Origin: Candidatus Saccharimonadota bacterium | Lineage (GTDB): Bacteria > Patescibacteriota > Saccharimonadia > Saccharimonadales > Saccharimonadaceae | Assembly (NCBI GenBank): GCA_023898645.1 | Contig: CP060232.1 | Coordinates: forward strand, 570,001 to 602,000 | Direction of reading: 5' to 3' | DNA: 32,000 nt | Shown: positions 1-32,000 of the stretch, piece by piece | Position numbering within the stretch: position 1 is the stretch's first letter | Layout: each line of letters starts with the position of its first letter | Notes under the pieces: generated by a model | Told to the model about the DNA's origin: nothing | The model's input: only the letters and a program-made list of their open reading frames with translations | The model's database searches: none | Translations under genes and position numbers: made by a program

Positions 1-600
1 GACCGTATCTGCAGCCGCCGTACTACCGTTGACTGCCACCCATTTGTTATAGGTAATCAATTGGTTACTATACGAACGATACGCACTGGTAAGTCCGATA
101 ACTTCTCCCGATGATGCTGCTGCATCAAGCATCGAAACTAAATGCGAATATATTTTATTACTCACAGGGTAGCCCTGATAGTACACGATGTCGCTTGGTG
201 CGAAATCAATGGGGCTAAAACAGTGCTTTTTGTTTATCAAGACATCAATCTGGTCCGGGTTGCCGTGCGCACCGCTAATTGCACAATTGGGCGTAGCAGC
301 CTGATCATGTTGCGTCTTGAGAGCAGTCTCAGCAGTCGCTTTTGTCTCGGCAGCTTTCCTTGCGGCAGCATCATCCGCCGCTTTTTTATCTGCAGCTGCC
401 TTTTCAGCTATTTTTTTAGATTTTATATCTGCAATCGTTTTATCGAGCTTTGCGAGTTCGGTTTGAGATTTTATTTGCTGCTTGGTGATAAGTTCATTGC
501 CGTAATAGGTAACACCGCTAAATGACCCGGCAAAAAGCAATACAGAAATTAAAATCGAGATATAGAAGATTCGTCTGCTTTTTAGTTTTATTTTGAGCAC
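1..600 (-). CDS. VanY-like D-alanyl-D-alanine carboxypeptidase (peptidase M15B), N-terminal membrane anchor; C-terminus lies beyond window start
   Basis: Manual minus-strand translation from GTG 600: VLKIKLKSRRIFYISILISVLLFAGSF (TM), then an Ala/Lys-rich segment, then DVLINKKHCFSPIDFAPSDIV and SAYRSYSNQLITY, which match VanY motifs (LVNKxxxLxxxYxPxDL, SxYRSYxxQ). The frame is open to nt 1. The ORF track omits it because there is no stop in the window. GTG 606 is an alternative start. Confidence 0.75.
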   Translation of the reverse strand, partial: MLKIKLKSRRIFYISILISVLLFAGSFSGVTYYGNELITKQQIKSQTELAKLDKTIADIKSKKIAEKAAADKKAADDAAARKAAETKATAETALKTQHDQAATPNCAISGAHGNPDQIDVLINKKHCFSPIDFAPSDIVYYQGYPVSNKIYSHLVSMLDAAASSGEVIGLTSAYRSYSNQLITYNKWVAVNGSTAAADTV

Positions 601-607
601 TAGCACT

Positions 608-616
608 ATTGTAACA
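608..616 (-). promoter_or_regulatory. Extended -10 element TGtTACAAT, 7 nt upstream of GTG 600 (leaderless-type arrangement)
   Basis: The reverse complement of 608-616 reads TGTTACAAT. There is no SD between it and the start codon. Confidence 0.4.
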
Positions 617-620
617 AATG

Positions 621-639
621 AAAAAGCCCGCAGGTGGGC
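621..639 (-). terminator. Probable intrinsic terminator of the 688-1224 gene
   Basis: The minus strand reads GCCCACCTGCGGGC (GCCC/GGGC stem) followed by TTTTTCATTT. It lies 49 nt after the stop at 688. Confidence 0.45.
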
Positions 640-687
640 CTACCGAGGTCTCAATCAGAGAAACCCCAGCAGGCCCTACCATGCGAG

Positions 688-1224
688 CTATGATATCGTG
701 GATCCCACACACTCTTTTGCCGACTCTTCCAATAGGGCGAACATGTCGTCGCGAAGAGCGACATACGCGGGAAATCCATAGAAATTATTGCCTATAAACC
801 AAGAACGGGCAAAACTAATGCCTTTTCTGGCTTGCACGTACGTGAGCCACCTGTCAGCAGCCAACATGCGCAATTTTTCGTCGGTTGTCGGTTCGCACTT
901 TAGGTTAAGCCACTGGTCAACGATACAAATGTCGTCAATATTCCCAGACAAAAGCCATATCTGGTGATAACCGATGATGTCACCAAGCCGTCGGATTCGC
1001 TGATACCAAGCGGTCTCCGTGGGGTGAACCAGCTGCTTGCGGCAGAAGCCTATGCTGTCGCAAATTTCTTGCGAATCGCAGGCTATGTCCTCCGGGCAGA
1101 TGAAATCATCCGGCTCTTGATCGTGGCGCTCGGCGCTGGTCGCAAAAGTATGCACGCAGCCCTTGTCTATACACCAGACCGGCGTAGGACAGTTCTCGTT
1201 ACAAGCGCTGAATGGGTGAGTCAT
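688..1224 (-). CDS. Hypothetical protein, 178 aa, Cys-rich N-terminal third (8 Cys in the first 60 residues, including C-x5-C-x5-C-x5-C)
   Basis: The ORF-track 688..1245 was trimmed to ATG 1224 (MTHPFSACNENC...) because AGGAG lies 6 nt upstream. A terminator follows. The antisense ORF 964..1260 has no such signals. I recognise no family. Confidence 0.6.
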   Translation of the reverse strand: MTHPFSACNENCPTPVWCIDKGCVHTFATSAERHDQEPDDFICPEDIACDSQEICDSIGFCRKQLVHPTETAWYQRIRRLGDIIGYHQIWLLSGNIDDICIVDQWLNLKCEPTTDEKLRMLAADRWLTYVQARKGISFARSWFIGNNFYGFPAYVALRDDMFALLEESAKECVGSTIS

Positions 1225-1300
1225 CAGACTGCTCCTAATATGCAATGGAGTGATCCATAATGTGCTTGTTTTGGCCGAATTTGGTCAAGACACGAAAAGT

Positions 1301-1309
1301 ATTTTAGCA
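1301..1309 (-). promoter_or_regulatory. Candidate extended -10 (TGcTAAAAT) for the 688-1224 gene
   Basis: The reverse complement of 1301-1309 is TGCTAAAAT. This gives a leader of about 70 nt to ATG 1224. Confidence 0.3.
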
Positions 1310-1375
1310 TAAAAATTGTTAAGCAATGCTTAGAATATGCCCTCAATTATTAATACTCCAACAGATAAAAGACTC

Positions 1376-1404
1376 TTGACCCACCTCTATTTTTGTGCTA
1401 TATT
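1376..1404 (+). promoter_or_regulatory. Strong sigma70-type promoter of the rplC operon: TTGACC-17 nt-TGcTATATT
   Basis: -35 TTGACC at 1376-1381, 17-nt spacer, TG at 1396-1397, -10 TATATT at 1399-1404. It lies about 115 nt upstream of rplC. Confidence 0.7.
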
Positions 1405-1415
1405 GAATCGGTAAC

Positions 1416-1429
1416 TTATTACGTAATAA
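1416..1429. repeat. Perfect 14-bp palindrome TTATTACGTAATAA at about +6..+19 of the rplC promoter
   Basis: Read directly from the sequence; it is self-complementary. It could be an operator or a 5' RNA hairpin. Function is unknown. Confidence 0.85.
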
Positions 1430-1519
1430 AAACTCGCTTCCGCGTGAATGAGCAAGTCTAAAGGGTAAAACCGACAGATACTACTCGCCACCGGAGGTTT
1501 TAAATGGGAGCAAAGCGCT

Positions 1520-2134
1520 ATGAAAGCACTTCTCGGTACCAAAATTGGTATGACCCAAATCATCAGCAAAGATGGTGTTGCTACTCCAGTAACATTGATT
1601 CAAGCTGGCCCTGTGACTGTGACTCAGGTCAAGTCTGTCGAAACCGACGGCTACAACGCAGTTCAAGTGGCATATGGTGAGGGTAAGAACCTGAGCAAGG
1701 CCGTTGCTGGACACACCAAACCAGCTCAAGTGACCCCGAAGACAATTCGGGAATTTCGCGTTGAAGACCTACCCGAAGATCTGAAAGTCGGTGATGCTAT
1801 CGATGTCAGCCAGTTTGCACTAGGCGACGTCGTAGACGCAACCGGAATCAGCAAGGGCAAAGGCTTCGCCGGAACGGTCAAGCGACACAACTTTAACACC
1901 AGTAAAAAAACGCACGGCGGCAACGGTAACGTGCGTAAACCTGGTTCGATCGGGTCTATGTACCCACAAAAGGTCTTTAAGGGCAAACGTATGGCTGGCC
2001 GCATGGGTCACGACCGCGTAACGGTCAAGAACCTAACCGTCGCCTACGTCGATCAGACTAATAACCTGATTGGGCTCAAGGGTGCCGTACCTGGCCCCAA
2101 CAAAGGCTTGGTGATCATAGGAGGTAAGGCATAA
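1520..2134 (+). CDS. rplC: 50S ribosomal protein uL3
   Basis: MKALLGTKIGMTQI... is a typical L3 N-terminus. Operon context; GGGAG upstream. Confidence 0.97.
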   Translation: MKALLGTKIGMTQIISKDGVATPVTLIQAGPVTVTQVKSVETDGYNAVQVAYGEGKNLSKAVAGHTKPAQVTPKTIREFRVEDLPEDLKVGDAIDVSQFALGDVVDATGISKGKGFAGTVKRHNFNTSKKTHGGNGNVRKPGSIGSMYPQKVFKGKRMAGRMGHDRVTVKNLTVAYVDQTNNLIGLKGAVPGPNKGLVIIGGKA

Positions 2135-2763
2135 TGGCTGAAACTACTAAACCAGCAGCTGCTAAGGCTGCAACCCTGCCAAAAGAAGTATTCAACGTCG
2201 AGGTGACAAACCACGAGTTGCTAAAACTGGCTTACGATTCATACCTAGCAAACAACCGTACTGCAAGCGCTACAACGCTTACTCGCGGTCTAGTTAGCGG
2301 TGGTGGCAAGAAGCCGTGGAAGCAAAAAGGCACCGGCCGCGCTCGCTTCGGTTCGTCTCGTAACCCAATCTGGCGCCATGGTGGTGTCGTGTTTGGTCCT
2401 AGCGGCAACGAAAACTACTCAAAGAAATTGAGTAAAACAAGCAAGCGTGTTGCTCTTCGCCAAGCGTTGACTTTGTCTAACGAGGCTAAAAAAGTAACCG
2501 TACTAGACATCAAGACAACTGGCAAAACTGCTGAAGTTGCAAAGATTCTTGCTTCCCATAAGCTAAACCGTCGCGTATTGATCGTCGTAGAAGCAGCAGA
2601 GAAGTCACCGGAATTGATCCGTGCAACTTCAAACCTACAGGACGTCCGCCTCATTGGTGCGAAATACCTAAGTGTCTACGACATCCTAAATGCCGACCAC
2701 GTAGTACTATCTACTAAATCCGTCCCAGTTATCAAAAACTGGTTGCTACAGGAGGGCGTGTAA
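2134..2763 (+). CDS. rplD: 50S ribosomal protein uL4
   Basis: The KKPWKQKGTGRAR motif. TAATG overlap with the rplC stop. Confidence 0.97.
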   Translation: MAETTKPAAAKAATLPKEVFNVEVTNHELLKLAYDSYLANNRTASATTLTRGLVSGGGKKPWKQKGTGRARFGSSRNPIWRHGGVVFGPSGNENYSKKLSKTSKRVALRQALTLSNEAKKVTVLDIKTTGKTAEVAKILASHKLNRRVLIVVEAAEKSPELIRATSNLQDVRLIGAKYLSVYDILNADHVVLSTKSVPVIKNWLLQEGV

Positions 2764-2764
2764 T

Positions 2765-3091
2765 ATGAGTAACTCAACACAGTTCGTATACCCACGCGCT
2801 ACCGAAAAGGCATATGCTGCAAGTCTAAATAACGTCTACGTATTTAACGTACCTACATCTGCCAACAAAAACGACATCGTAGCTAGCATCGAAGCTCAGT
2901 ACGGCGTCAAAGTTGTCAGCGTGCGCACAGTCGTACAAAGTGGCAAAGCCATCCGCTTTAACCGCGGTAAGCGCCGCTTCCCAGGTACGACTCATCGTAC
3001 AGACACCAAAAAGGCTTACGTAACTCTTGCAAAGGGTGACAGCATCCAAGTCTTTGCCGAGCAAGAGCAGCCTAAGGAGGAGAAGAAGTAA
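2765..3091 (+). CDS. rplW: 50S ribosomal protein uL23 (short acidic/Lys C-terminal tail)
   Basis: Position between L4 and L2; the fold-length core is L23-like. Confidence 0.93.
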   Translation: MSNSTQFVYPRATEKAYAASLNNVYVFNVPTSANKNDIVASIEAQYGVKVVSVRTVVQSGKAIRFNRGKRRFPGTTHRTDTKKAYVTLAKGDSIQVFAEQEQPKEEKK

Positions 3092-3930
3092 TGGCAATTA
3101 AAGCATACAACCCAACTACTCCCGGCCGTCGCGGCATGACTACTCAAGATTTGAGTGACATCACTACTCGCGGCAAGGTCAAAAGCCTCGTTAAGAGCAA
3201 AAAGCAGAATGCCGGCCGTAATAACACCGGTCGCATCACTGTTCGCCATCGTGGTGGCGGCGTTAAACGCCACTACCGTTTGGTTAACCACAACCTTGCA
3301 GCTGGCCTAAAGGTTACTGTCGAGGAAATCGAATACGATCCAAACCGTAGCGCTCGTATTGCCCGTGTTAAAGATCAGCACGGTCTATACCACTACATCT
3401 TGGCCGACACTAGCATGACGAAGGGTAAAGTTATCGAAAGCGGTGCAAAAGCACCAATCGAAAGCAGCAACCGTCTACCACTAAGCGAAATTCCTGTAGG
3501 TAGTCAGATCTACGCGATCGAACTAACCCCAGGCAAGGGCGCTCAAATGGTACGTGCAGCTGGCGCTAAAGCTCAGCTAATGGCTAAAGAGGGCGACCAC
3601 GCCCAAATTCGCCTGCCATCAGGTGAAGTTCGCAGGGTTCGTCTAGAGGCAACCGCTGCAATCGGTGTTGTTGGTAACGTTCAGCATCAAAACATCAAGA
3701 TAGGATCAGCCGGACGTAATCGCCGCAAGGGCATCCGCCCAGGCGTCCGAGGTGTCGTTATGAACGCCGCAGATCACCCACACGGTGGTGGTGACGGTGG
3801 TCGTCATGGTACTGGTAAGGCTCCGCGAACACCATGGGGTCAATTGACACTTGGTTACCGCACTCGCCGACGCAAAGACGTTGCCGGTCTGATAGTTAAA
3901 TCACGCCATGAGGCGAAGAGGAAGAGGTAA
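3091..3930 (+). CDS. rplB: 50S ribosomal protein uL2
   Basis: The motifs GRNNTGRITVRHRGGG and MNAADHPHGGG. Confidence 0.98.
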   Translation: MAIKAYNPTTPGRRGMTTQDLSDITTRGKVKSLVKSKKQNAGRNNTGRITVRHRGGGVKRHYRLVNHNLAAGLKVTVEEIEYDPNRSARIARVKDQHGLYHYILADTSMTKGKVIESGAKAPIESSNRLPLSEIPVGSQIYAIELTPGKGAQMVRAAGAKAQLMAKEGDHAQIRLPSGEVRRVRLEATAAIGVVGNVQHQNIKIGSAGRNRRKGIRPGVRGVVMNAADHPHGGGDGGRHGTGKAPRTPWGQLTLGYRTRRRKDVAGLIVKSRHEAKRKR

Positions 3931-3933
3931 GAC

Positions 3934-4197
3934 ATGAGTCGATCACTTAAAAAAGGTCCATTCATCGATGCCAAGCTGGCTAAAAAAGTAGCCGCTCTGA
4001 GCCTCGATGATCGCACCGTTATCAAAACTTGGGCTCGTTCCAGCACTGTTACTCCTGAAATGGTCGGCCGCACAATCGCCGTACACAACGGCCGCGTGCA
4101 CGTACCTGTAGTCGTTAGCGAAAACATGGTTGGTCACAAGCTCGGTGAATTTAGTCCAACTCGTAAGTTCCGTAAACACGGTGGTAAGGCGAAGTAA
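3934..4197 (+). CDS. rpsS: 30S ribosomal protein uS19
   Basis: [12 protein letters not shown]...HNGR...VGHKLGEF. Confidence 0.97.
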
Positions 4198-4198
4198 C

Positions 4199-4600
4199 AT
4201 GGCTGATTCACTAAAAGTACGCGCATATATTAAGGGCGTCGACCAAACTCCCCGCAAGGTAAGCTTGGTCGCAGCGCTTGTACGCAATCGTACAGTTGCA
4301 GATGCACTTGTCATCCTGGAACACGTACCTAAGCGTGCAGCACTCCCTGTAAAGAAAGCTATCGAGAGCGCAAAAGCAAACGCCATGAACAATCATGGTC
4401 TTGATGGCAAAACACTTGTTATTTCTACATTGAGCGTCACGACTGGTCCACGACTTCGCCGATTCAAACCAGCTAGCCGCGGTCGTGCACTGCCATTTGA
4501 AAAGAAAACCAGCCACATTTTGGTCGAAGTATCTGGTACTGAAAAGCCTAAGAAAAAGCCGGTCGCTAAAGTAGCCGACGAGAAGAAAGAGGAGAAATAA
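4199..4600 (+). CDS. rplV: 50S ribosomal protein uL22 with Lys/Glu-rich C-terminal tail
   Basis: The ORF-track 4130 start overlaps rpsS. ATG 4199 (MADSLKVRAYIKG...) sits 1 nt after the rpsS stop and gives the canonical L22 N-terminus. Confidence 0.93.
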   Translation: MADSLKVRAYIKGVDQTPRKVSLVAALVRNRTVADALVILEHVPKRAALPVKKAIESAKANAMNNHGLDGKTLVISTLSVTTGPRLRRFKPASRGRALPFEKKTSHILVEVSGTEKPKKKPVAKVADEKKEEK

Positions 4601-4601
4601 G

Positions 4602-5234
4602 ATGGGACAAAAAGTTAACCCTATCAGCTTCCGCCTGCAAGTCCACAAGAACTGGAGTTCTCGCTGGTTTGCTGGCAAAAAAGACTTCGCTAAATGGCTG
4701 AAGGAAGACATCGAGATCCGCGAACTGATTGAAAAACGGTTTGCTTCTCGTCCAACTATCAGCCGTATAGAAATTGAACGTTCTGCCAACCTCATCACTA
4801 TCACTATTCATACCGCGAAAGCTGGTGTTGTGATCGGTCGTGGCGGCGCAGGCGTTACTGAACTAAAGGCTGCGATTGAAAAGTTGGCTAGCCTGCCAGT
4901 TCGCATCAACATCGAAGAGGTTAAGCGACCTGAACTCGACGCCAAACTGGTTGCCGAGAACATCGCTCGCCAATTGGAGCGCCGCATCAACTTCCGTCGC
5001 GCCATGAAAATGTCTGCTCAGAATACAATGAACGCCGGCGCCAAGGGTATCCGTATCCAAGTTGCCGGTCGTCTGAACAACGCTGAAATGGCCCGCCGCG
5101 AAAAGGTTATCGAAGGTTCAGTACCTCTACATACACTACGCGCTGATATTGATTTCCACTCCGCTCGTGCACTTGCACCTGGCGTTGGAATCATCGGCGT
5201 AAAGGTATGGATTTACAAAGGTGAAAGGAGCTAA
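4602..5234 (+). CDS. rpsC: 30S ribosomal protein uS3
   Basis: [12 protein letters not shown]...; KH domain GRGGAG. Confidence 0.98.
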
Positions 5235-5239
5235 TCGAT

Positions 5240-5653
5240 ATGTTGATACCAAAGAAAACCAAGTATCGAAAAGTCCGCAAAGGCAAGAACAAGGGTATTG
5301 CAACTCGCGGTCACTACGTCGCCTTTGGTGACTTCGGCCTACAGGCGCAAAGCAACAACGACGTTACCAGTCGCCAGATCGAGTCAGCTCGTCAGGCGAT
5401 GACACGCTACATCAAGCGTGGTGGTAAAATCTGGATTCGCATCTTCCCTCACACTCCACGTACTCGCAAGCCGCAGGACGTGAAAATGGGTAGTGGTAAG
5501 GGTAACCCTGAATTCTTTGCCGCAAAAGTTAAAGCCGGTACTGTCATGTTTGAGATGAAGGGCGTTAACGAAGAAATCGCTCGCGAGGCTATGCGCCTAG
5601 CAAGTCACAAGCTGCCAGTTAAAACAAAGTTCGTAAAGCGAGAGGAGGCGTAA
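5240..5653 (+). CDS. rplP: 50S ribosomal protein uL16
   Basis: [15 protein letters not shown]... is a canonical L16 start. Confidence 0.98.
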
Positions 5654-5654
5654 T

Positions 5655-5891
5655 ATGGCTGAAAAGACTACTAAAGCGACCAAATCAAGCAAAGCGAAAG
5701 TTGCAGTAGAAGTGAAATCACTTGATCAACTAAAAGCTGAATTGTTAACGAAGCAGAGTGATCACCTGGAAACCCGTCGCAGCCATCGCGCTGGCGAATT
5801 GGTTAACCCACGTGCTATCACGCACAGTCGCAAGGACATCGCACGTCTAAAGACCGCGATCCGCGCGCATGAACTAAAAGGAGATAAGTAA
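5655..5891 (+). CDS. rpmC: 50S ribosomal protein uL29
   Basis: Size and position between L16 and S17; helical Lys-rich protein. Confidence 0.9.
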
Positions 5892-10770: not shown

Positions 10771-12183
10771 ATGAACTGGAAAACTATCTTTCGATCACTA
10801 AAAAACCGTGACATGCAAAAACGCCTTGGCGTCGTGTTGGCGCTCATAGTCGTATATCGATTCTTAGCGCACATACCCGTACCGCTTGCAGAACCAACCA
10901 AACTTAAACAAGTTATTGATTCAGTGGTGAACGCTAGCGACTTTGGCGGATTTTTGAATCTGCTATCTGGTGGCGCACTCGCAAGCTTCTCAATCGTACT
11001 AGTGGGAATGAGCCCGTTCATTACGGCAAGCATCATTACTCAGCTTTTGACCAAAGCCATACCAAAGCTAGAAGAGCTACATAAAGACGGCGAATCAGGT
11101 CGTCGAAAGATCAACCAGTGGACACGCCTCATTACTGTTCCTTTGGCCATAGTCCAATCAATCGCCTTCATCTATATCTTGCGCCAGACTGTTTTGGCGG
11201 GCAACACAACAGTCCTTAATAACACGTCAGCGTTAGAGTGGGTCGTAGCTGTCTTGGCGATGACCGTAGGCGCAGTACTACTGATGTGGCTCGGTGAGCT
11301 CATGACAGAGCAAGGTATAGGTAACGGTATTTCTATGGTGATTTTTGCCGGCATCATCAGCCAACTTCCAAATACGATGGCGTCCCTTGGGGCCTCCCTA
11401 ACGGACACTTCTCATGGCACGCTCAACGTCTTTGGATGGTTTCACATACCCGTCAATCCAACCTCATTTTGGGTGTCAATTGTCATCGGAATCGCCTCGC
11501 TCATCGTTCTGTATATACTCGTAAAGATCAACGAAGCGCAGCGTGTCATCACTATTAACTACGCCAAGCGCGTGCAGGGCAACAGCAACTACGGTGGCGT
11601 AAAGAGCATTCTACCGATTAAACTCATTGCTGCCGGCGTGATTCCAGTCATCTTTGCCGTCGCGTTCCTTAGCCTTCCAGCCTTCGTCGGCCAAGTTTTA
11701 AAAGCTACCGGCAACGCGCAATATCTTGATCTCGCCAACAACCTGATCACATGGTTCCAAGCGCCACAGCCTGGACAGTTTACGGGCGATACATTAAGCG
11801 CGCTCATTTACCCAGCCAGCTACTTTGCGCTTGTTATAATCTTTACGTACTTCTATACGGGCATCGTCTTTAATAGCAACGAAATCGCCGAGAACCTGCA
11901 AAAGCAAGGTGGCTTCATAGAGGGCGTTCGACCAGGTATCCAGACAGAGAAATACCTGTCACAAACCGTCAACCGACTCATCCTCTTCGGATCAATCGTA
12001 CTCGGCGTTATCGCTGTCATGCCGTTCATAGCTGAGTACTTGTTTGCACGATTCGGCGTCACAGGTATACAAAACCTCGCCATCGGTGGCACGGGTATCC
12101 TCATTGTTGTTTCAGTAGCTCTCGAAAGCTTGCGTCAGATCAATTCACGCGCGCTCATGGTTACTTACGACGACTACAAATAA
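10771..12183 (+). CDS. secY: Preprotein translocase subunit SecY
   Basis: 470 aa, multi-TM. Motifs LGVVLALIVVYRFLAHIPVP, GMSPFITASII and GISMVIFAGI are typical of SecY. Confidence 0.97.
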   Translation: MNWKTIFRSLKNRDMQKRLGVVLALIVVYRFLAHIPVPLAEPTKLKQVIDSVVNASDFGGFLNLLSGGALASFSIVLVGMSPFITASIITQLLTKAIPKLEELHKDGESGRRKINQWTRLITVPLAIVQSIAFIYILRQTVLAGNTTVLNNTSALEWVVAVLAMTVGAVLLMWLGELMTEQGIGNGISMVIFAGIISQLPNTMASLGASLTDTSHGTLNVFGWFHIPVNPTSFWVSIVIGIASLIVLYILVKINEAQRVITINYAKRVQGNSNYGGVKSILPIKLIAAGVIPVIFAVAFLSLPAFVGQVLKATGNAQYLDLANNLITWFQAPQPGQFTGDTLSALIYPASYFALVIIFTYFYTGIVFNSNEIAENLQKQGGFIEGVRPGIQTEKYLSQTVNRLILFGSIVLGVIAVMPFIAEYLFARFGVTGIQNLAIGGTGILIVVSVALESLRQINSRALMVTYDDYK

Positions 12184-23516: not shown

Positions 23517-23553
23517 TACGAAATTAAATTAACGGGTGGTATTGAGGGTTAGT

Positions 23554-24498
23554 ATGACAAAGAACGTAGAATCAACCAACATACTCCGAGAGCTTGAGCC
23601 CGTTGTCGAGTCAGAACTTAACAGACACGAAAAAATGGTAAAAAATTGGTATCCGCACGACTACGTTCCATGGAGCGAAGGTAAAAATTTCGCATATCTA
23701 GGCGGGGAAGACTGGGAGCCAACACAATCACGACTTGGAAAAGCCGCCAGGGCAGCCATGTACGTAAATCTACTGACTGAAGACAATCTGCCTTCTTATC
23801 ATCGAGTGATCTCCGCTACTTTCGGACGCGATAGCGCATGGGGTACATGGGTAGACCGCTGGACGGCTGAAGAAAACAAACACGGCATAGCTATGCGTGA
23901 CTATCTGACAGTAACAAGAGCAATCAATCCCGTAGAGCTGGAGCAGGCACGCATGCAGCAGATGACGTCAGGATATCAGAGTGAAAAATCTCCACTAGAC
24001 GCTGTTGCCTACGTCACCATGCAGGAGCTCGCCACTCGTATCGCTCATCGCAACACGGGCATAGAGAGCAGAAAAGACGGCGACGAGCTGGCAGAAAAGC
24101 TACTTGCTCGTATTGCACTCGACGAAAACCTGCACATGCTGTTTTATCGCAATATCGGTACAGCCGCATTCGAAGTAGAGCCTAACGAGATGATGAAATC
24201 TGTCACAGAGGAAATTCTTGGGTTTCAGATGCCTGGCGCTGCAAGCATTCCTGATTTTTGGGCAAATGCCGCCGTTATCGCTGATGCCGAGATCTATGAC
24301 CTCAACATCCATGCCAATAGTATCGTCAACCCGACTCTAAAACACTGGAAAGTCTGGGACCGCACAGACCTAAGTGGCGAAGGCGCTGAAGCTAGAGACA
24401 AACTCGGTAGGTACATGCTAAAACTTGAATCAAAAGCGCAAGAACTAGTAGAGCTTCGCGAGGAGCAAAAAGCTGCCCAGAACACTAGTCAAAACTAA
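23554..24498 (+). CDS. Soluble acyl-ACP desaturase family protein (di-iron, DesA/stearoyl-ACP desaturase type)
   Basis: LLTEDNLPSYH, WTAEENKHG, QELATRIAHRNT and ALDENLHMLFY match the four-helix di-iron ligand motifs (EENxH / DExxH). ATG 23554 with GAGGG 5 nt upstream is preferred to the ORF-track GTG 23536. Confidence 0.88.
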   Translation: MTKNVESTNILRELEPVVESELNRHEKMVKNWYPHDYVPWSEGKNFAYLGGEDWEPTQSRLGKAARAAMYVNLLTEDNLPSYHRVISATFGRDSAWGTWVDRWTAEENKHGIAMRDYLTVTRAINPVELEQARMQQMTSGYQSEKSPLDAVAYVTMQELATRIAHRNTGIESRKDGDELAEKLLARIALDENLHMLFYRNIGTAAFEVEPNEMMKSVTEEILGFQMPGAASIPDFWANAAVIADAEIYDLNIHANSIVNPTLKHWKVWDRTDLSGEGAEARDKLGRYMLKLESKAQELVELREEQKAAQNTSQN

Positions 24499-30383: not shown

Positions 30384-30458
30384 AGGGGCATAGTACAACG
30401 GCTAGTATAGCGGTCTCCAAAACCGTAGATTGAGGTTCGATTCCTCATGCCCCTGCCA
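30384..30458 (+). tRNA. tRNA-Trp (anticodon CCA), CCA tail encoded
   Basis: Acceptor AGGGGCA/TGCCCCT, anticodon loop CTCCAAA, T arm GAGG-TTCGATT-CCTC, discriminator G followed by CCA. Confidence 0.93.
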
Positions 30459-32000
30459 TAATGGATAAAGCGCATTTTCGGCGCTTTTTTCGTTATTTTG
30501 ACCCCCGTTATTTTCACTATTTGTAAAAGTTCTATCATTTGATTTTCGTGTTCCTAATAATTCGCGTGTTTTCGAACTATATTTAGCGATCAGTTCAGCA
30601 CGATCCTTCAAGCTAACAGATACAGAATCGTTCTTAAACATGATATTTTCGAACAGTTCTATCAAAATCTGGCGTTTCTCATCATCGTCCTTTTCGTCGT
30701 AGTATTTAGCTGCTCGTTGCGATAGTTCTAGCATGTATATGCCGCGTCGTTTCCGTTCAGTTACAGTGCTATCAAACGACGCCATGGCAAGCTCTAGGGT
30801 TTCAATCTCGTTCATGAATGACTCGTGCTTAGCTTCGTATCGCTCCTGTGTGATGACGCCTGCAAGCTTGTCGTCGTATAGGGCTTCGTCCATAGACTTA
30901 ATACGCTCTATGCGCGCCTTCGTGTTCTGTTCGACTTCCGCGCGGTTATCTGCGGCCTTCTCGACATCAGATTGCATGCTCTCAACGACCCACTCTAGAA
31001 TACTCTGAGAAGGGCATAAAAGGCGCTCAAGCTCCTGCTTTACAGCCTCTTGCACTACATCTTCGCGGATATATTTATACTTACGATTCTTGCATCGCTC
31101 ATCACGACGCTGGCAAGCTCCATAATAACGGCCTTTCTGCAGTTGCCATGAAACCTGACTGCCACAAGTCGCACAGGTAACAACTCCTTTTAAAGATACG
31201 TTGTGCCGTACCTGTTTTTTAGGTCGCTTACCGTGCAGCTTATCTTGTACAGCCTCCCACACTTCGCGCCTTACTATTGGTGTTTGAGCACCAGGGTATT
31301 CCTGTCCATTAAAACGATTAATCCCTATGTAAAAGGGATTTAGAAGTATTTTATGTACGTGACTCTCTGGTATCGGTCTACCGTTGCGTGTTGTTAGTCC
31401 AATCTCTCGCATCTTTGCAGCAACAGATTCAATTGATTGGCCGGGTTTTAGGTATAGCTCAAACATCGCCCTGACTGAGTTCATTGTGGTCGGGTTTGGA
31501 ACATGTATACGTTTACCGTGATCAGTTACGGTCATATATCCGACAGGAGGTACGGCCGGTAGCCATCCTTGAGCTAGCTTTTCCGCCCAGCCCTTCATAG
31601 CCTCTTCTCGTAAGTTGTCAGTGTATTTCTTGGCAACAGCTAAGTGGATATTCCACATAAACTTAACGTCAGACTTCGACTCCTTGTGTAGCTGGATGTT
31701 CTCTTTGACGAGATGGAGCATCCGATCAGCGTCTTTACTGAGCCAATCATCAATAGCAACGGCATCCTTCATATTGCGTGTGAGCCTGTCGGTCTTTTCG
31801 ACAGCCAGATGATAGATAGCGTTCTTATTCATGTAGGTTAGAAGTTCCTTGAATATCCTGCGACTCTGTTCTTTTGATGCTGTCTCGGCTATTTTAAATA
31901 TCTTATCGACTATAAAGCCCTTATTGGCACAATATCCTGTGAGGAGCTTTACTTGAGAGTCGAGGGAATACCCCTCGTCCTCCTGCGACTTACTCGATAC
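30402..32000 (-). CDS. Large serine recombinase (phage-integrase type); N-terminus beyond window end
   Basis: The frame stays open upstream of the ORF-track ATG 31832: ...VSSKSQEDEGYSLDSQ (catalytic Ser motif) ...VEKTDRLTRN (resolvase domain). A recombinase domain, a zinc ribbon (CATCGSQ...CQRRDERC) and a coiled coil follow. The last 19 codons are antisense to tRNA-Trp. Confidence 0.88.
   Translation of the reverse strand, partial: VSSKSQEDEGYSLDSQVKLLTGYCANKGFIVDKIFKIAETASKEQSRRIFKELLTYMNKNAIYHLAVEKTDRLTRNMKDAVAIDDWLSKDADRMLHLVKENIQLHKESKSDVKFMWNIHLAVAKKYTDNLREEAMKGWAEKLAQGWLPAVPPVGYMTVTDHGKRIHVPNPTTMNSVRAMFELYLKPGQSIESVAAKMREIGLTTRNGRPIPESHVHKILLNPFYIGINRFNGQEYPGAQTPIVRREVWEAVQDKLHGKRPKKQVRHNVSLKGVVTCATCGSQVSWQLQKGRYYGACQRRDERCKNRKYKYIREDVVQEAVKQELERLLCPSQSILEWVVESMQSDVEKAADNRAEVEQNTKARIERIKSMDEALYDDKLAGVITQERYEAKHESFMNEIETLELAMASFDSTVTERKRRGIYMLELSQRAAKYYDEKDDDEKRQILIELFENIMFKNDSVSVSLKDRAELIAKYSSKTRELLGTRKSNDRTFTNSENNGGQNNEKSAENALYPLWQGHEESNLNLRFWRPLY
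30459..32000. mobile_element. Left end of a putative integrated element inserted next to or into the 3' end of tRNA-Trp
   Basis: The recombinase gene abuts the tRNA and points toward it. The other boundary is outside the window. Confidence 0.5.
30468..30490 (+). terminator. Intrinsic terminator after tRNA-Trp
   Basis: AAGCGC-attttcg-GCGCTT followed by TTTT. It lies inside the recombinase ORF on the opposite strand. Confidence 0.7.

Follow-up and report, generated by a model that had tools for sequence, protein, structure and literature searches.

The window (the whole 32,000-nt stretch of DNA analysed) closes with a segment, positions 30384–32000, in which an intact tRNA-Trp gene meets a convergent gene for a large serine recombinase (LSR). 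The window also carries MscS and GT4 genes. The features of the segment are as follows, with the related locus L004, whose LSR is 96% identical to that of the window, serving as the main point of comparison.

30384–30458, plus strand: tRNA-Trp(CCA) gene, intact, CCA encoded; putative integration target (B arm and core); ARAGORN, and Rfam RF00005 at 63.7 bits
30453–30457, no strand assigned: likely crossover, CTGCC (acceptor-stem end, discriminator base and CC); from identity blocks in relatives
30459–30490, plus strand: P′ arm, putatively element-derived, with proximal motif TAATGGAT and intrinsic terminator; from terminator scan, fold and identity with L004
30500–30517, plus strand: degenerate remnant of a family-wide second hairpin motif (GACCYCTGTTATYGRGGTC and T-run); from an alignment of P′ arms from 46 loci
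30402–30545, minus strand: segment homologous to an att-spanning mini-ORF, fused in frame to the LSR (KSNDRTFTNSENNGGQNNEKSAENALYPLWQG and tail)
30546–32000, minus strand: LSR core (catalytic and recombinase domains, zinc ribbon with coiled coil); from Pfam, homologues, and AlphaFold and Foldseek

The tRNA-Trp gene folds as a cloverleaf. The terminator behind it (30467–30490) consists of a 7-pair hairpin (30467–30487) and a T-run (−14.3 kcal/mol, z = −4.2), and this hairpin would act as a substitute terminator for tRNA-Trp, supplied by the element. The remnant at 30500–30517 encodes an NNGG/NNRG motif when read on the minus strand; no stable fold of it was found in the window.

On the minus strand, the LSR ORF is open from position 32000 down to a TAG stop at 30402–30404, with ~11 N-terminal codons lying beyond the window edge. 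The first residues inside the window are VSSKSQ, the Arg of this motif falling just past the edge; R12, V13 and S14 (the R-V-S motif with the nucleophilic Ser) are invariant across 73 homologues, and the zinc-ribbon residues C288, C291, C308 and C315 are invariant in the homologue alignment. The protein matches the Pfam families Resolvase (PF00239, 1e-16), Recombinase (PF07508, 1e-16) and Zn_ribbon_recom (PF13408, 3e-7). Its AlphaFold model contains long helices at residues 344–392 and 397–420 and retrieves serine integrase, Bxb1, PhiC31 and LI integrase complexes in Foldseek (best E = 1e-18). A resolvase-type catalytic domain, a recombinase domain and a four-Cys zinc ribbon with coiled coil are all present, and by domain content and predicted fold the protein is a large serine recombinase (serine integrase). 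The initial annotation had described a catalytic VSSKSQ near the window end, a zinc ribbon, a coiled coil and a gene running toward tRNA-Trp without a stop before 30402, and the ORF, Pfam matches, invariant Cys residues and model helices agree with it in each respect. So do the coordinates of the antisense overlap, which takes in the terminator and exactly 57 nt of the tRNA gene (30402–30458).

A reading frame across the tRNA end

Homologues of the window LSR number more than 1,200 database proteins. Among the 80 best loci, drawn from species-representative genomes and nearly all labelled Saccharibacteria or unclassified, a convergent tRNA gene abuts the LSR gene in 62 (tRNA-Trp 26, tRNA-Gln 34, tRNA-Asn 1, tRNA-Gly 1); 7 others are cut by contig ends, and 11 run into another att-bounded segment with no tRNA. 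The family also occurs at two or more sites within single metagenome-assembled genomes (MAGs). A search of IMG/VR for related recombinases gave a best match only 24% identical. The LSR family appears to be large, directed at tRNA ends and hitherto undescribed.

The window ORF ends ...ALYPLWQGHEESNLNLRFWRPLY*, where WQG corresponds to the reverse complement of the tRNA 3′ end, CCCCTGCCA; the codons that follow, from H to Y, are antisense to the tRNA body, and host tRNA antisense encodes the tail and stop (30402–30452). None of the 42 unique loci has a stop in the frame that crosses the tRNA end, whereas each of the five other frames contains stops in 25–42 of the 42. Even the sequence-variable middle part of this frame (~10 codons) is stop-free throughout. 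In 19 of 20 short-class loci, the frame takes the form of an ATG-initiated mini-ORF across the core, typically with a GGAGG ribosome-binding site and an ATGA overlap with the LSR stop. Fused and unfused forms align, and many fused forms keep the internal Met. Because the arrangement recurs in 62 of 80 loci, and because this frame alone is free of stops, it is not due to chance. The read-through in the window therefore suggests a conserved, selected feature, namely an att-spanning mini-ORF fused in frame to the LSR, rather than an accident, and the mini-ORF may have a function.

It is possible, though we consider it the less likely reading, that the att-crossing frame has no translational function, being held open by conserved DNA, with the window fusion a neutral frameshift. 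The three codon positions of the mini-ORF are conserved almost equally (0.58/0.61/0.55, a weak periodicity), with some third positions invariant; the A-run and hairpin of the terminator encode KKDPNNRG, and conservation resides partly at the DNA/RNA level (terminator hairpin, binding motifs). Moreover, the tail after WQG is variable, and the fused extension and tail are modelled by AlphaFold at low confidence and predicted to be disordered (pLDDT <50). At such low confidence, the model of the extension carries no information on docking or an RDF-like role. Conserved DNA does not, however, readily account for a variable middle part that stays open in 42 of 42 loci when every other frame has stops, for an ATG mini-ORF retained with its typical GGAGG and ATGA signals in 19 of 20 short-class loci, or for the persistence of the internal Met in many fused forms.

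Across the family, the att-crossing frame, apparently translated, exists either as a separate mini-ORF of ~30 codons, coupled to the LSR stop via ATGA, or as an in-frame LSR fusion, as in the window. A conserved W-Q/L-G marks its passage through the tRNA end, read in antisense; past the core, it would continue into host tRNA antisense when the element is integrated and into the element's other arm when it is excised. Since the attachment site overlaps the 3′ end of the recombinase ORF, the LSR C-terminus must differ between the two states. This agrees with the earlier proposal that attP overlaps the end of the recombinase gene and that the C-terminus depends on the state; in the reconstructed L004 attP, the LSR frame would end WQGHVQNAR*.

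A probable insertion at the end of tRNA-Trp

An insertion is seen on comparing L004 with L093, a locus with tRNA-Trp and no LSR. These match at 81% over 3.66 kb up to a break exactly at the tRNA 3′ end, and homology resumes 10,117 bp further on, at a 13-nt repeat of the tRNA end. Downstream of the site, L093 shares with L004 only 57 nt, a stretch that itself recurs as a junction motif, which leaves the far boundary less rigorously placed than the near one. In L013, an 8.4-kb element lies between 60-bp repeats, and in L061 an LSR element is bounded by P-arm repeats within a tandem array. A search for attR by blastn-short and 8–10-mers gave ends in L004 and L013 only; its reach was 10 kb, and most elements exceed this or are truncated by a contig end.

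Comparison with relatives lacking the insertion, which the initial annotation had recommended, yielded eight LSR-free tRNA-Trp sites (L084, L085, L087, L093, L094, L095, L099 and L100); an LSR-free site from the window's own species was not found among the loci compared. A tRNA-Trp attB junction would read ...TTCCTCATGCCCCTGCCA followed by non-P′ sequence, and the secE-nusG genes expected downstream of tRNA-Trp are present in an LSR-free relative. The cargo differs between relatives. The LSR gene is 87–88% identical at the nucleotide level in L005 and L006, as against 64–70% for the chromosomal flanks; L004 has no alignable flank. Conservation of the LSR so far above that of the flanks shows signs of horizontal transfer.

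The break at the tRNA 3′ end in L004 and L093, the LSR-free sites and the differing cargo, all seen in relatives, bear out the initial view of the segment as a probable attL. The window comes from a Saccharibacteria-like chromosome (CPR), and on this comparative evidence 30384–32000 is very likely an attL junction, at which an LSR-encoding mobile element of non-phage type is inserted at the end of tRNA-Trp. This reading of the window is supported through its relatives, and since attR and cargo lie outside the window, everything past 32000 is described by analogy with relatives of at most 96% amino-acid identity.

Could the LSR instead be a fixed, domesticated or decaying chromosomal gene that by chance lies beside tRNA-Trp and no longer marks the end of a mobile element? 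Many relatives do have an LSR at the same tRNA, and the closest copies are only ~88% identical at the nucleotide level, so that the insertions are not very recent. Nor did the excised circle, for which the initial annotation had suggested looking, come to light when the reconstructed L004-type attP junction (P arm-CTGCCA-TAATGGATAAAGCGC) was scanned against IMG/VR, where it had no match. A fixed gene is nevertheless improbable, given the LSR-free tRNA-Trp sites, the family's use of four tRNA species, with two or more sites occupied in single MAGs, the cargo that varies between close relatives, and the ends defined in L004, L013 and L061. In addition, the ORF is unbroken and retains every catalytic and zinc residue, conservation of the LSR far exceeds that of its flanks, and the window and the L004 flank lack synteny. 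The window LSR is thus better read as part of an integrated element, which may be currently active.

The position of the crossover can be narrowed by comparing element ends. Over the 57 nt after position 30448, the window and L004 show zero differences, whereas their tRNA bodies differ. More generally, the window and L004–L007 combine a near-identical P′ arm with tRNA-Trp genes that differ in their T and acceptor stems. Among such elements, whose LSRs are 95–96% identical, the tRNA bodies differ at many positions with the stems compensated; the tRNA body is therefore host DNA. The identity blocks between element ends measure 13 nt in L004, 10–11 nt in L015 and 6 nt (CTGCCA) in L061. Relatives place a hard bound on the crossover at GCCCCTGCC (30449–30457, 9 nt), and the candidate dinucleotides would fall in GCCCCTGCCA. 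We infer that the crossover lies within the last ~5 nt of tRNA-Trp, CTGCC. Blocks of 6–13 nt are compatible with attP × attB exchange at a central dinucleotide, with a 2-bp crossover.

Two consequences follow. If exchange takes place in the last ~5 nt, the ~17 codons of the tail that run antisense to the tRNA would be host-encoded rather than supplied by the element, and the last ~17 residues of the window LSR are probably host-encoded, variable and functionless. Moreover, an element that restores only ~5 nt would in most cases not have a long tRNA 3′-end repeat as its attR. The initial annotation had the element reconstitute the tRNA 3′ end, which holds for the last ~5 nt, whereas a 57-nt segment is at odds with identity blocks of 6–13 nt. 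Likewise, the predicted repeat of the tRNA 3′ end does occur in relatives, as 60 bp in L013 or 13 nt in L004, but is not a 57-nt segment in most. L013 is an exception, indicating a deeper tRNA copy in some elements. Two attR-type junctions have CCG in place of CCA.

A crossover at the T-stem AC dinucleotide (13/12 nt before the terminal A), to which attB dyad symmetry and the left-hand limit of the 13-nt block had pointed, was rejected, because identity with the tRNA end extends over no more than 10–11 nt in L015 and 6 nt in L061, and the T-stem changes are compensated on the host side. The symmetric half-site motifs GTTCGAT/ATAGAAC and TTATGCT/AGCATAA have inconsistent spacings, and no claim is made for them.

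A crossover deep in the tRNA, as in tyrosine-integrase islands, with the element supplying a long tRNA 3′ part (~57–59 nt), is also very improbable. It would suit the far ends of L013 and of four metagenome copies, where the tRNA 3′ part is repeated perfectly over 59–60 nt, and the 18 or 27 nt of tRNA copied by other P arms. It conflicts, however, with the short blocks in L004, L015 and L061 and with near-identical P′ arms and LSRs on differing, stem-compensated tRNA bodies, and P arms with longer stretches of tRNA-like sequence more plausibly mimic the B half-site.

With the crossover at the extreme tRNA end, integration could proceed as follows. The B half of attB, formed by the T arm and acceptor end in the 3′ part of the tRNA gene, would be bound by an LSR dimer, and strand exchange would occur at a dinucleotide in the terminal CTGCC. 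The P′ arm of the element would begin at the terminal (CC)A, leaving the tRNA intact, and the element would place a new terminator hairpin directly behind it.

Cargo, cassette arrays and related systems

The L004 element encodes proteins that match Replic_Relax (27.9 bits, cut-off 25.3), TrwB_AAD_bind (29.6 bits, cut-off 20.5) and TraG-D_C (22.7 bits, cut-off 22); 66 related loci have a Replic_Relax homologue and 16 have the ATPase. No T4SS genes of the mating-pore set were seen in the L004 element, which therefore looks IME-like. Searches of this ~10-kb element with Pfam and PHROGs found no virion structural or packaging genes, with no capsid, tail or portal match. Judged by these matches, the cargo of relatives is of mobilisation type (a coupling-protein-like ATPase and Replic_Relax) together with defence genes, and is not phage; the phage-type option left open by the initial annotation thus loses its ground. 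By analogy with L004, the module beside int in the window element would comprise small ORFs, an RHH-like protein, Replic_Relax and a TraG/VirD4-like ATPase, with variable defence-type cargo in addition, and the element is probably mobilised by conjugation-type transfer. That the window LSR is the integrase end of a temperate prophage is extremely unlikely: although most characterised LSR integrases are phage-encoded, one L004 cargo protein has a weak terminase-like PHROGs match and a reverse transcriptase matches a PHROG, the L004 element lacks capsid, tail and portal matches, measured elements span only 3.5–10 kb, the conserved neighbours are Replic_Relax, the RHH protein and the TraG/VirD4-like ATPase, and IMG/VR has no relatives above 24% identity.

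Relatives also contain arrays, reminiscent of integrons or SCC, of cassettes that lack an integrase and have tRNA-end mimics at their borders. The cassette junctions consist of these mimics and a terminator, rather than attC hairpins, and there is no tyrosine recombinase; IntI, attI and attC cassettes are absent, and the likeness to integrons is functional only. A P-arm-like sequence at the far end of the window element would be of the AAGTTC...CTAG or GTTCTGAAC type and end in CTGCC(A/G). The motif AGCATAAGCAC after tRNA-Trp was at one point taken for host flank, and L084 and L089 for attR of LSR elements; the motif and tRNA-like arms recur in tandem, however, so that the L084 and L089 junctions belong to cassette arrays.

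A tentative model, which we regard as doubtful, is that the LSR family runs integron- or SCC-like gene capture on tRNA 3′ ends, in trans, with the mini-ORF as a directionality or state-sensing factor. The captured units would be integrase-less and often single genes, each with a ~30-nt P arm mimicking the T-arm and acceptor end, a CTGCCA core and a terminator-promoter module; the LSR would both insert and excise them, and behind tRNA-Trp they would accumulate in arrays that reach 7 to 10 or more. Such capture would require the LSR to accept attL-type sites (a tRNA half with any right half), unlike canonical serine integrases.

Serine integrases are viewed as enzymes of insertion within protein-coding genes, tRNA genes being the territory of tyrosine integrases. 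The window LSR shares domain architecture, fold and short att identity with the Bxb1, PhiC31, A118/LI, TP901-1 and SPbeta integrases. It is, however, remote from phage and ICE LSRs (the catalytic domain alone matches TP901-1, at 1e-7), and its family is confined to Saccharibacteria, is not on phage-like contigs, and targets the extreme 3′ end of a tRNA rather than the interior of a protein-coding gene, with an ORF that crosses the att core.

In staphylococci, the Ccr large serine recombinases of SCC integrate at the 3′ end of rlmH, and elements without a recombinase, flanked by the same short repeat, build up in tandem. Compared by description, SCC and the window family have in common an LSR that acts at the very 3′ end of an essential, conserved gene and leaves that gene active; the window family differs in its tRNA target, in a single LSR in place of the CcrAB pair, and in cassettes that are mostly single genes with a tRNA-end-mimicking arm.

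The pairing of a serine integrase with a tRNA gene, called unusual by the initial annotation, is rare but has precedents. The use of tRNA genes by serine recombinases has been termed unknown or rare (PMC4383910, PMC3218068), yet Mycobacterium AICEs use tRNA-Leu and the Ralstonia phage phiRSM uses tRNA-Ser (Ghinet et al. 2011, PMC3218068). These share with the window family a serine recombinase and a tRNA 3′-end target, and AICEs are likewise small (~10–20 kb), integrative and transferable. Going by the published descriptions, phylum and recombinase lineage differ, the phiRSM enzyme being small and resolvase-like, and the att-spanning ORF, multi-tRNA radiation and cassette arrays of the window family are not described for AICEs or phiRSM.

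Among tyrosine recombinases, the ORFs of Mx8 IntP and SSV-type integrases extend across attP (PMC4383910, PMC6070905). There too, attP lies inside the integrase frame and integration at a tRNA gene alters the 3′ end and C-terminus; in the window family, by contrast, the crossing part is a short appendage or coupled mini-ORF outside the catalytic protein. Tyrosine-integrase tRNA islands, including tycheposons, form tRNA-proximal hypervariable islands (bioRxiv 10.1101/2020.12.28.424599). Like integrons and tycheposons, the arrays consist of small same-orientation accessory units, each ending in a recombination-site-like sequence, beside a fixed anchor; unlike them, they have no IntI-type tyrosine recombinase or attC, are anchored on a tRNA 3′ end and carry the serine enzyme on one unit. 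An Islander-type tRNA island is defined by a tyrosine integrase, whereas the window integrase is a serine recombinase; the displaced tRNA fragment at the far end is 60 nt in L013 and 6–13 nt in L004, L015 and L061.

The family thus presents an LSR clade spread across at least four tRNA species, with the target kept functional and an identity block of ~5 nt, and how an LSR reads a tRNA-shaped DNA half-site becomes directly testable. Compact integrases aimed at universally conserved sites may be of interest for genome engineering; very few genetic tools are available for Saccharibacteria and other CPR. The att-crossing frame and the arrays of tRNA-end-mimic cassettes point to unexplored regulation and gene capture in very small genomes.

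The recombinase gene and its family

The large serine recombinase (LSR) frame runs through the terminator into tRNA-Trp, an observation of the initial annotation that is right in all details: the stop lies at 30402-30404 and the overlap with the tRNA is exactly 57 nt.

Features at the tRNA-Trp end of the window
30384-30458, plus strand: tRNA-Trp(CCA), with encoded CCA and a cloverleaf fold
30467-30487: terminator hairpin and T-run, directly behind tRNA-Trp
32000 (open at the window edge) to TAG stop at 30402-30404, minus strand: LSR frame

By domains (Resolvase, Recombinase and Zn_ribbon_recom), invariant residues and fold, the product is a bona fide large serine recombinase, and characterised LSRs are remote from it in sequence. 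Its C-terminus reads ...ALYPLWQGHEESNLNLRFWRPLY before the stop, where WQG corresponds to the tRNA end CCCCTGCCA read in antisense; the residues after WQG come from the complementary strand of the tRNA body. The window is a Saccharibacteria-type chromosome segment with a ribosomal-protein operon, tRNA-Thr/Tyr/Thr, a GH15/GH57/GT4 cluster, an MscS-like gene and an acyl-ACP-desaturase-like gene. The last of these (window 23536-24498, plus strand; soluble acyl-ACP desaturase family, FA_desaturase_2, 5e-71) sits between tRNA-Thr and the glycan cluster; genomes of this type are usually described as being without fatty-acid synthesis.

Database searching returned >1200 homologues at E ≤ 1e-10, of which few carry source annotations; those that exist name Saccharibacteria. 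The LSR gene end was inspected in each of the best 80 loci from species-representative genomes. A convergent tRNA abuts the gene in 62 of these (Trp 26, Gln-UUG 19, Gln-CUG 15, Asn 1, Gly 1), the gene end is lost at a contig end in 7, and in 11 the P' arm (the element-derived arm directly behind the tRNA end) and core are followed by another att-bounded segment. Where a tRNA abuts, the frame enters it by 12-204 nt (36/62) or stops 67-87 nt short (26/62). The proteins form two length classes: ~544 aa, with tails that are antisense-tRNA peptides, and ~496 aa, ending ~48 residues earlier. Nearly all loci carry the label Saccharibacteria or are unclassified; the contig of one family member (L036, DATLRC010000002.1) was binned as Candidatus Dormiibacterota, in what is probably an erroneous assignment and not a case of the family reaching a second phylum.

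Insertion, mobility and cargo in relatives

Sequence similarity between the UBA6572 locus L004, whose LSR is 96% identical to that of the window, and the LSR-free locus L093 (81% over 3.66 kb) stops exactly at the tRNA 3' end; the alignment picks up again 10,117 bp further on, at the 13-nt repeat GGCAGGGGCACGT. Another relative, L013, carries an 8.4-kb element flanked by perfect 60-bp repeats. Relatives without the insertion, the comparison proposed in the initial annotation, do exist: scanning metagenomes for the tRNA end together with its usual downstream sequence gave eight loci, L084 among them, where tRNA-Trp has no LSR, and in one of these the expected secE and nusG genes lie ~2.2 kb downstream of tRNA-Trp. 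An LSR-free site of the same species as the window was not found, and an IMG/VR scan for the excised form, as the reconstructed L004-type attP junction, gave no match. At the nucleotide level, the window LSR gene is 87-88% identical to that of L004 or L006, the chromosomal flanks of L005 and L006 are 64-70% identical to those of the window, and the L004 flank has no alignable match to the window flank.

Cargo varies among relatives. L004 (within 1525-4105) encodes a reverse transcriptase (phrog_1423), a PLD-like nuclease and HAD_SAK_2, and L001 (within 1-5837) nSTAND3/Mrr, DUF2779 and a type III R-M methylase; in both close relatives the cargo looks like anti-phage defence. The int-adjacent module is conserved: a 77-aa ORF (55 loci), an RHH-like 67-aa ORF, Replic_Relax (66 loci) and a TraG/VirD4-like ATPase (16 loci). 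No virion genes were found in the L004 element with Pfam and PHROGs, and IMG/VR holds no close relatives of the window LSR. In several MAGs, two members of the family are present on separate contigs. Taken across relatives, the element ends, LSR-free sites, variable cargo, LSR identity exceeding that of the flanks and two-member MAGs argue that the gene is not fixed but belongs to a mobile element of non-phage type that spreads horizontally; for the window element itself, we infer activity and transfer mode.

In L085 (reverse strand), ~620 bp downstream of an LSR-free tRNA-Trp, P-arm-like sequence (resembling the element's other end) and core (GTTCGTCCACTAGGGGCTGCCA) precede an int-type P' arm that contains the terminator and an NDRTFT-coding motif. 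Since no recombinase gene lies behind this arm, the site looks like the scar of a deleted LSR element.

Probable crossover position and the frame across the core

Identity blocks between two element ends, or between an element end and the tRNA
L013: 60 nt
L089 (array junction): 27 nt
L084 (array junction): 18 nt
L004: 13 nt
L015: 10-11 nt
L061: 6 nt (CTGCCA)

Every identity block ends at the tRNA terminus, and their common intersection is CTGCC. Independent evidence comes from the P' arm, which is near-identical in the window and L004-L007 (LSRs 95-96% identical), with 0 differences over 57 nt between window and L004. The tRNA-Trp genes that carry this arm vary in their T and acceptor stems, with pairing kept by compensatory changes; the tRNA body is therefore host DNA, and the element starts at or inside the last few nucleotides of the tRNA. 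From these sequences we infer a crossover somewhere in 30453-30457 (hard bound 30449-30457). Mimicry of the tRNA half-site best accounts for the longer tRNA-like P arms of some elements.

On this placement, host DNA encodes the stop codon and all codons that follow WQG. The reconstructed L004 attP agrees with the earlier proposal that the LSR C-terminus differs between integrated and excised states, as its frame would end WQGHVQNAR before the stop. The L013 repeat (3153-3212 and 11542-11601) contains 59 nt of tRNA and reaches just past the stop of the read-through ORF (57 nt), so that in this lineage the tail would be the same in both states; this match could be coincidence or selection. At two independent attR-type junctions, L004:1412-1426 (also L091, L092) and L084:6954-6966, ...CCCCTGCCG stands before AGCATAAGCAC; the same position reads ...GCCA in 9/9 complete or partial LSR-free tRNA-Trp genes, an A-to-G difference at the tRNA terminal position.

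Alignment of P' arms revealed a conserved proximal motif, (T/A)ATAGAACG (TAATGGAT in the window), the tRNA terminator hairpin and a distal GGTTYGRTTA-type motif. In 19/20 short-class loci an ATG-initiated mini-ORF crosses the core into the tRNA, typically with GGAGG upstream and an ATG overlapping the LSR stop (ATGA). Its consensus is M-x-N-R/Q-T-x-K-K-D-P-N-N-R-G-(10-13 residues)-L-R-S/P-I/V-W-Q/L-G, and the long class, including the window (KSNDRTFTNSENNGGQNNEKSAENALYPLWQG), has this sequence fused in-frame to the LSR. Over the 26 codons upstream of the W codon, stops occur in this frame in 0 of 42 unique loci and in the five other frames in 25 to 42 of 42. Codon-position conservation is only weakly periodic and KKDPNNRG is encoded by the terminator A-run and hairpin, pointing to superimposed DNA/RNA-level and translational constraints. 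AlphaFold models the LSR core confidently to ~residue 499, and the extension and tRNA-antisense tail with low confidence. Our conclusion is that selection favours translation across the att core and that the tail after WQG is incidental; coupling/regulation or directionality are candidate roles of the mini-ORF.

Cassette arrays and known systems

Tandem arrays of integrase-less units lie behind tRNA-Trp in several genomes and behind tRNA-Gln in L066.

Arrays
L084:3189-8720
L089:5263-13050
L061:7994-19264
L066:11449-13422

The L084 array packs at least 7 units into 5.4 kb behind an intact tRNA-Trp that has no LSR within 12.5 kb. Each of its units closes with AGTTGCGAAGTACGTCCACTAGCYYCTGCCA, which mimics the T-stem and acceptor end of the tRNA, and opens with AGCATAAGCAC or AGAAAAA; a hairpin terminator and a TGnTAnnAT promoter-like box come next and, in most units, a single gene. 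Units of the other arrays likewise have a ~30-nt tRNA 3'-end mimic plus CTGCCA at the end and a terminator and promoter-like module at the start. The cassette genes are mutually unrelated (HNH, TauE, AAA-type kinase-like, NTPase_I-T, LMW phosphatase, CdiA_C, HAD). L089 has at least 10 such junctions; L061 and L066 combine LSR-bearing and LSR-less units within one array, the P arms of the two kinds being ~85-90% identical in L061. These arrays resemble SCC composite arrays or integron cassette arrays, and suggest that the LSR can act on sites in which only the tRNA-like half is conserved.

In L015 (1-7896, the whole contig; MAG shared with L012) the LSR ORF passes the core and enters a tRNA-mimic P arm of the L084 kind, not a tRNA; a separate TTTGGCAGGGGC junction lies at the left end, behind a terminator. 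The contig is probably one unit of a tandem array; a closed circle is ruled out, as its ends do not overlap. The 9-mer AGCATAAGC follows tRNA-Trp and many cassette junctions, and also occurs in the spacer of strong promoter-like sites (TTGTAA-A-AGCATAAGC...-TATAAT; L007:6091, L012:6708, L013:13218, L014:5661, L087:2153, L021:11693 and others). Its 57 occurrences in 1.5 Mb of fetched loci are partly due to locus selection; it may be a host-factor binding site.

IMEs with a serine recombinase insert within genes (PMC5704250), and serine-recombinase integration into tRNA genes is described as "rare", the known cases being Mycobacterium AICEs (tRNA-Leu) and phage phiRSM (tRNA-Ser) (PMC3218068), which share this arrangement with the window family. 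Integrase ORFs extending across attP, as in the window family, are known from Mx8 and SSV, but there the enzymes are of the tyrosine type (PMC4383910, PMC6070905). The window family is a large CPR-specific clade that joins LSR chemistry to the targeting of tRNA 3' ends through a minimal core, and has a translated frame across the att site.
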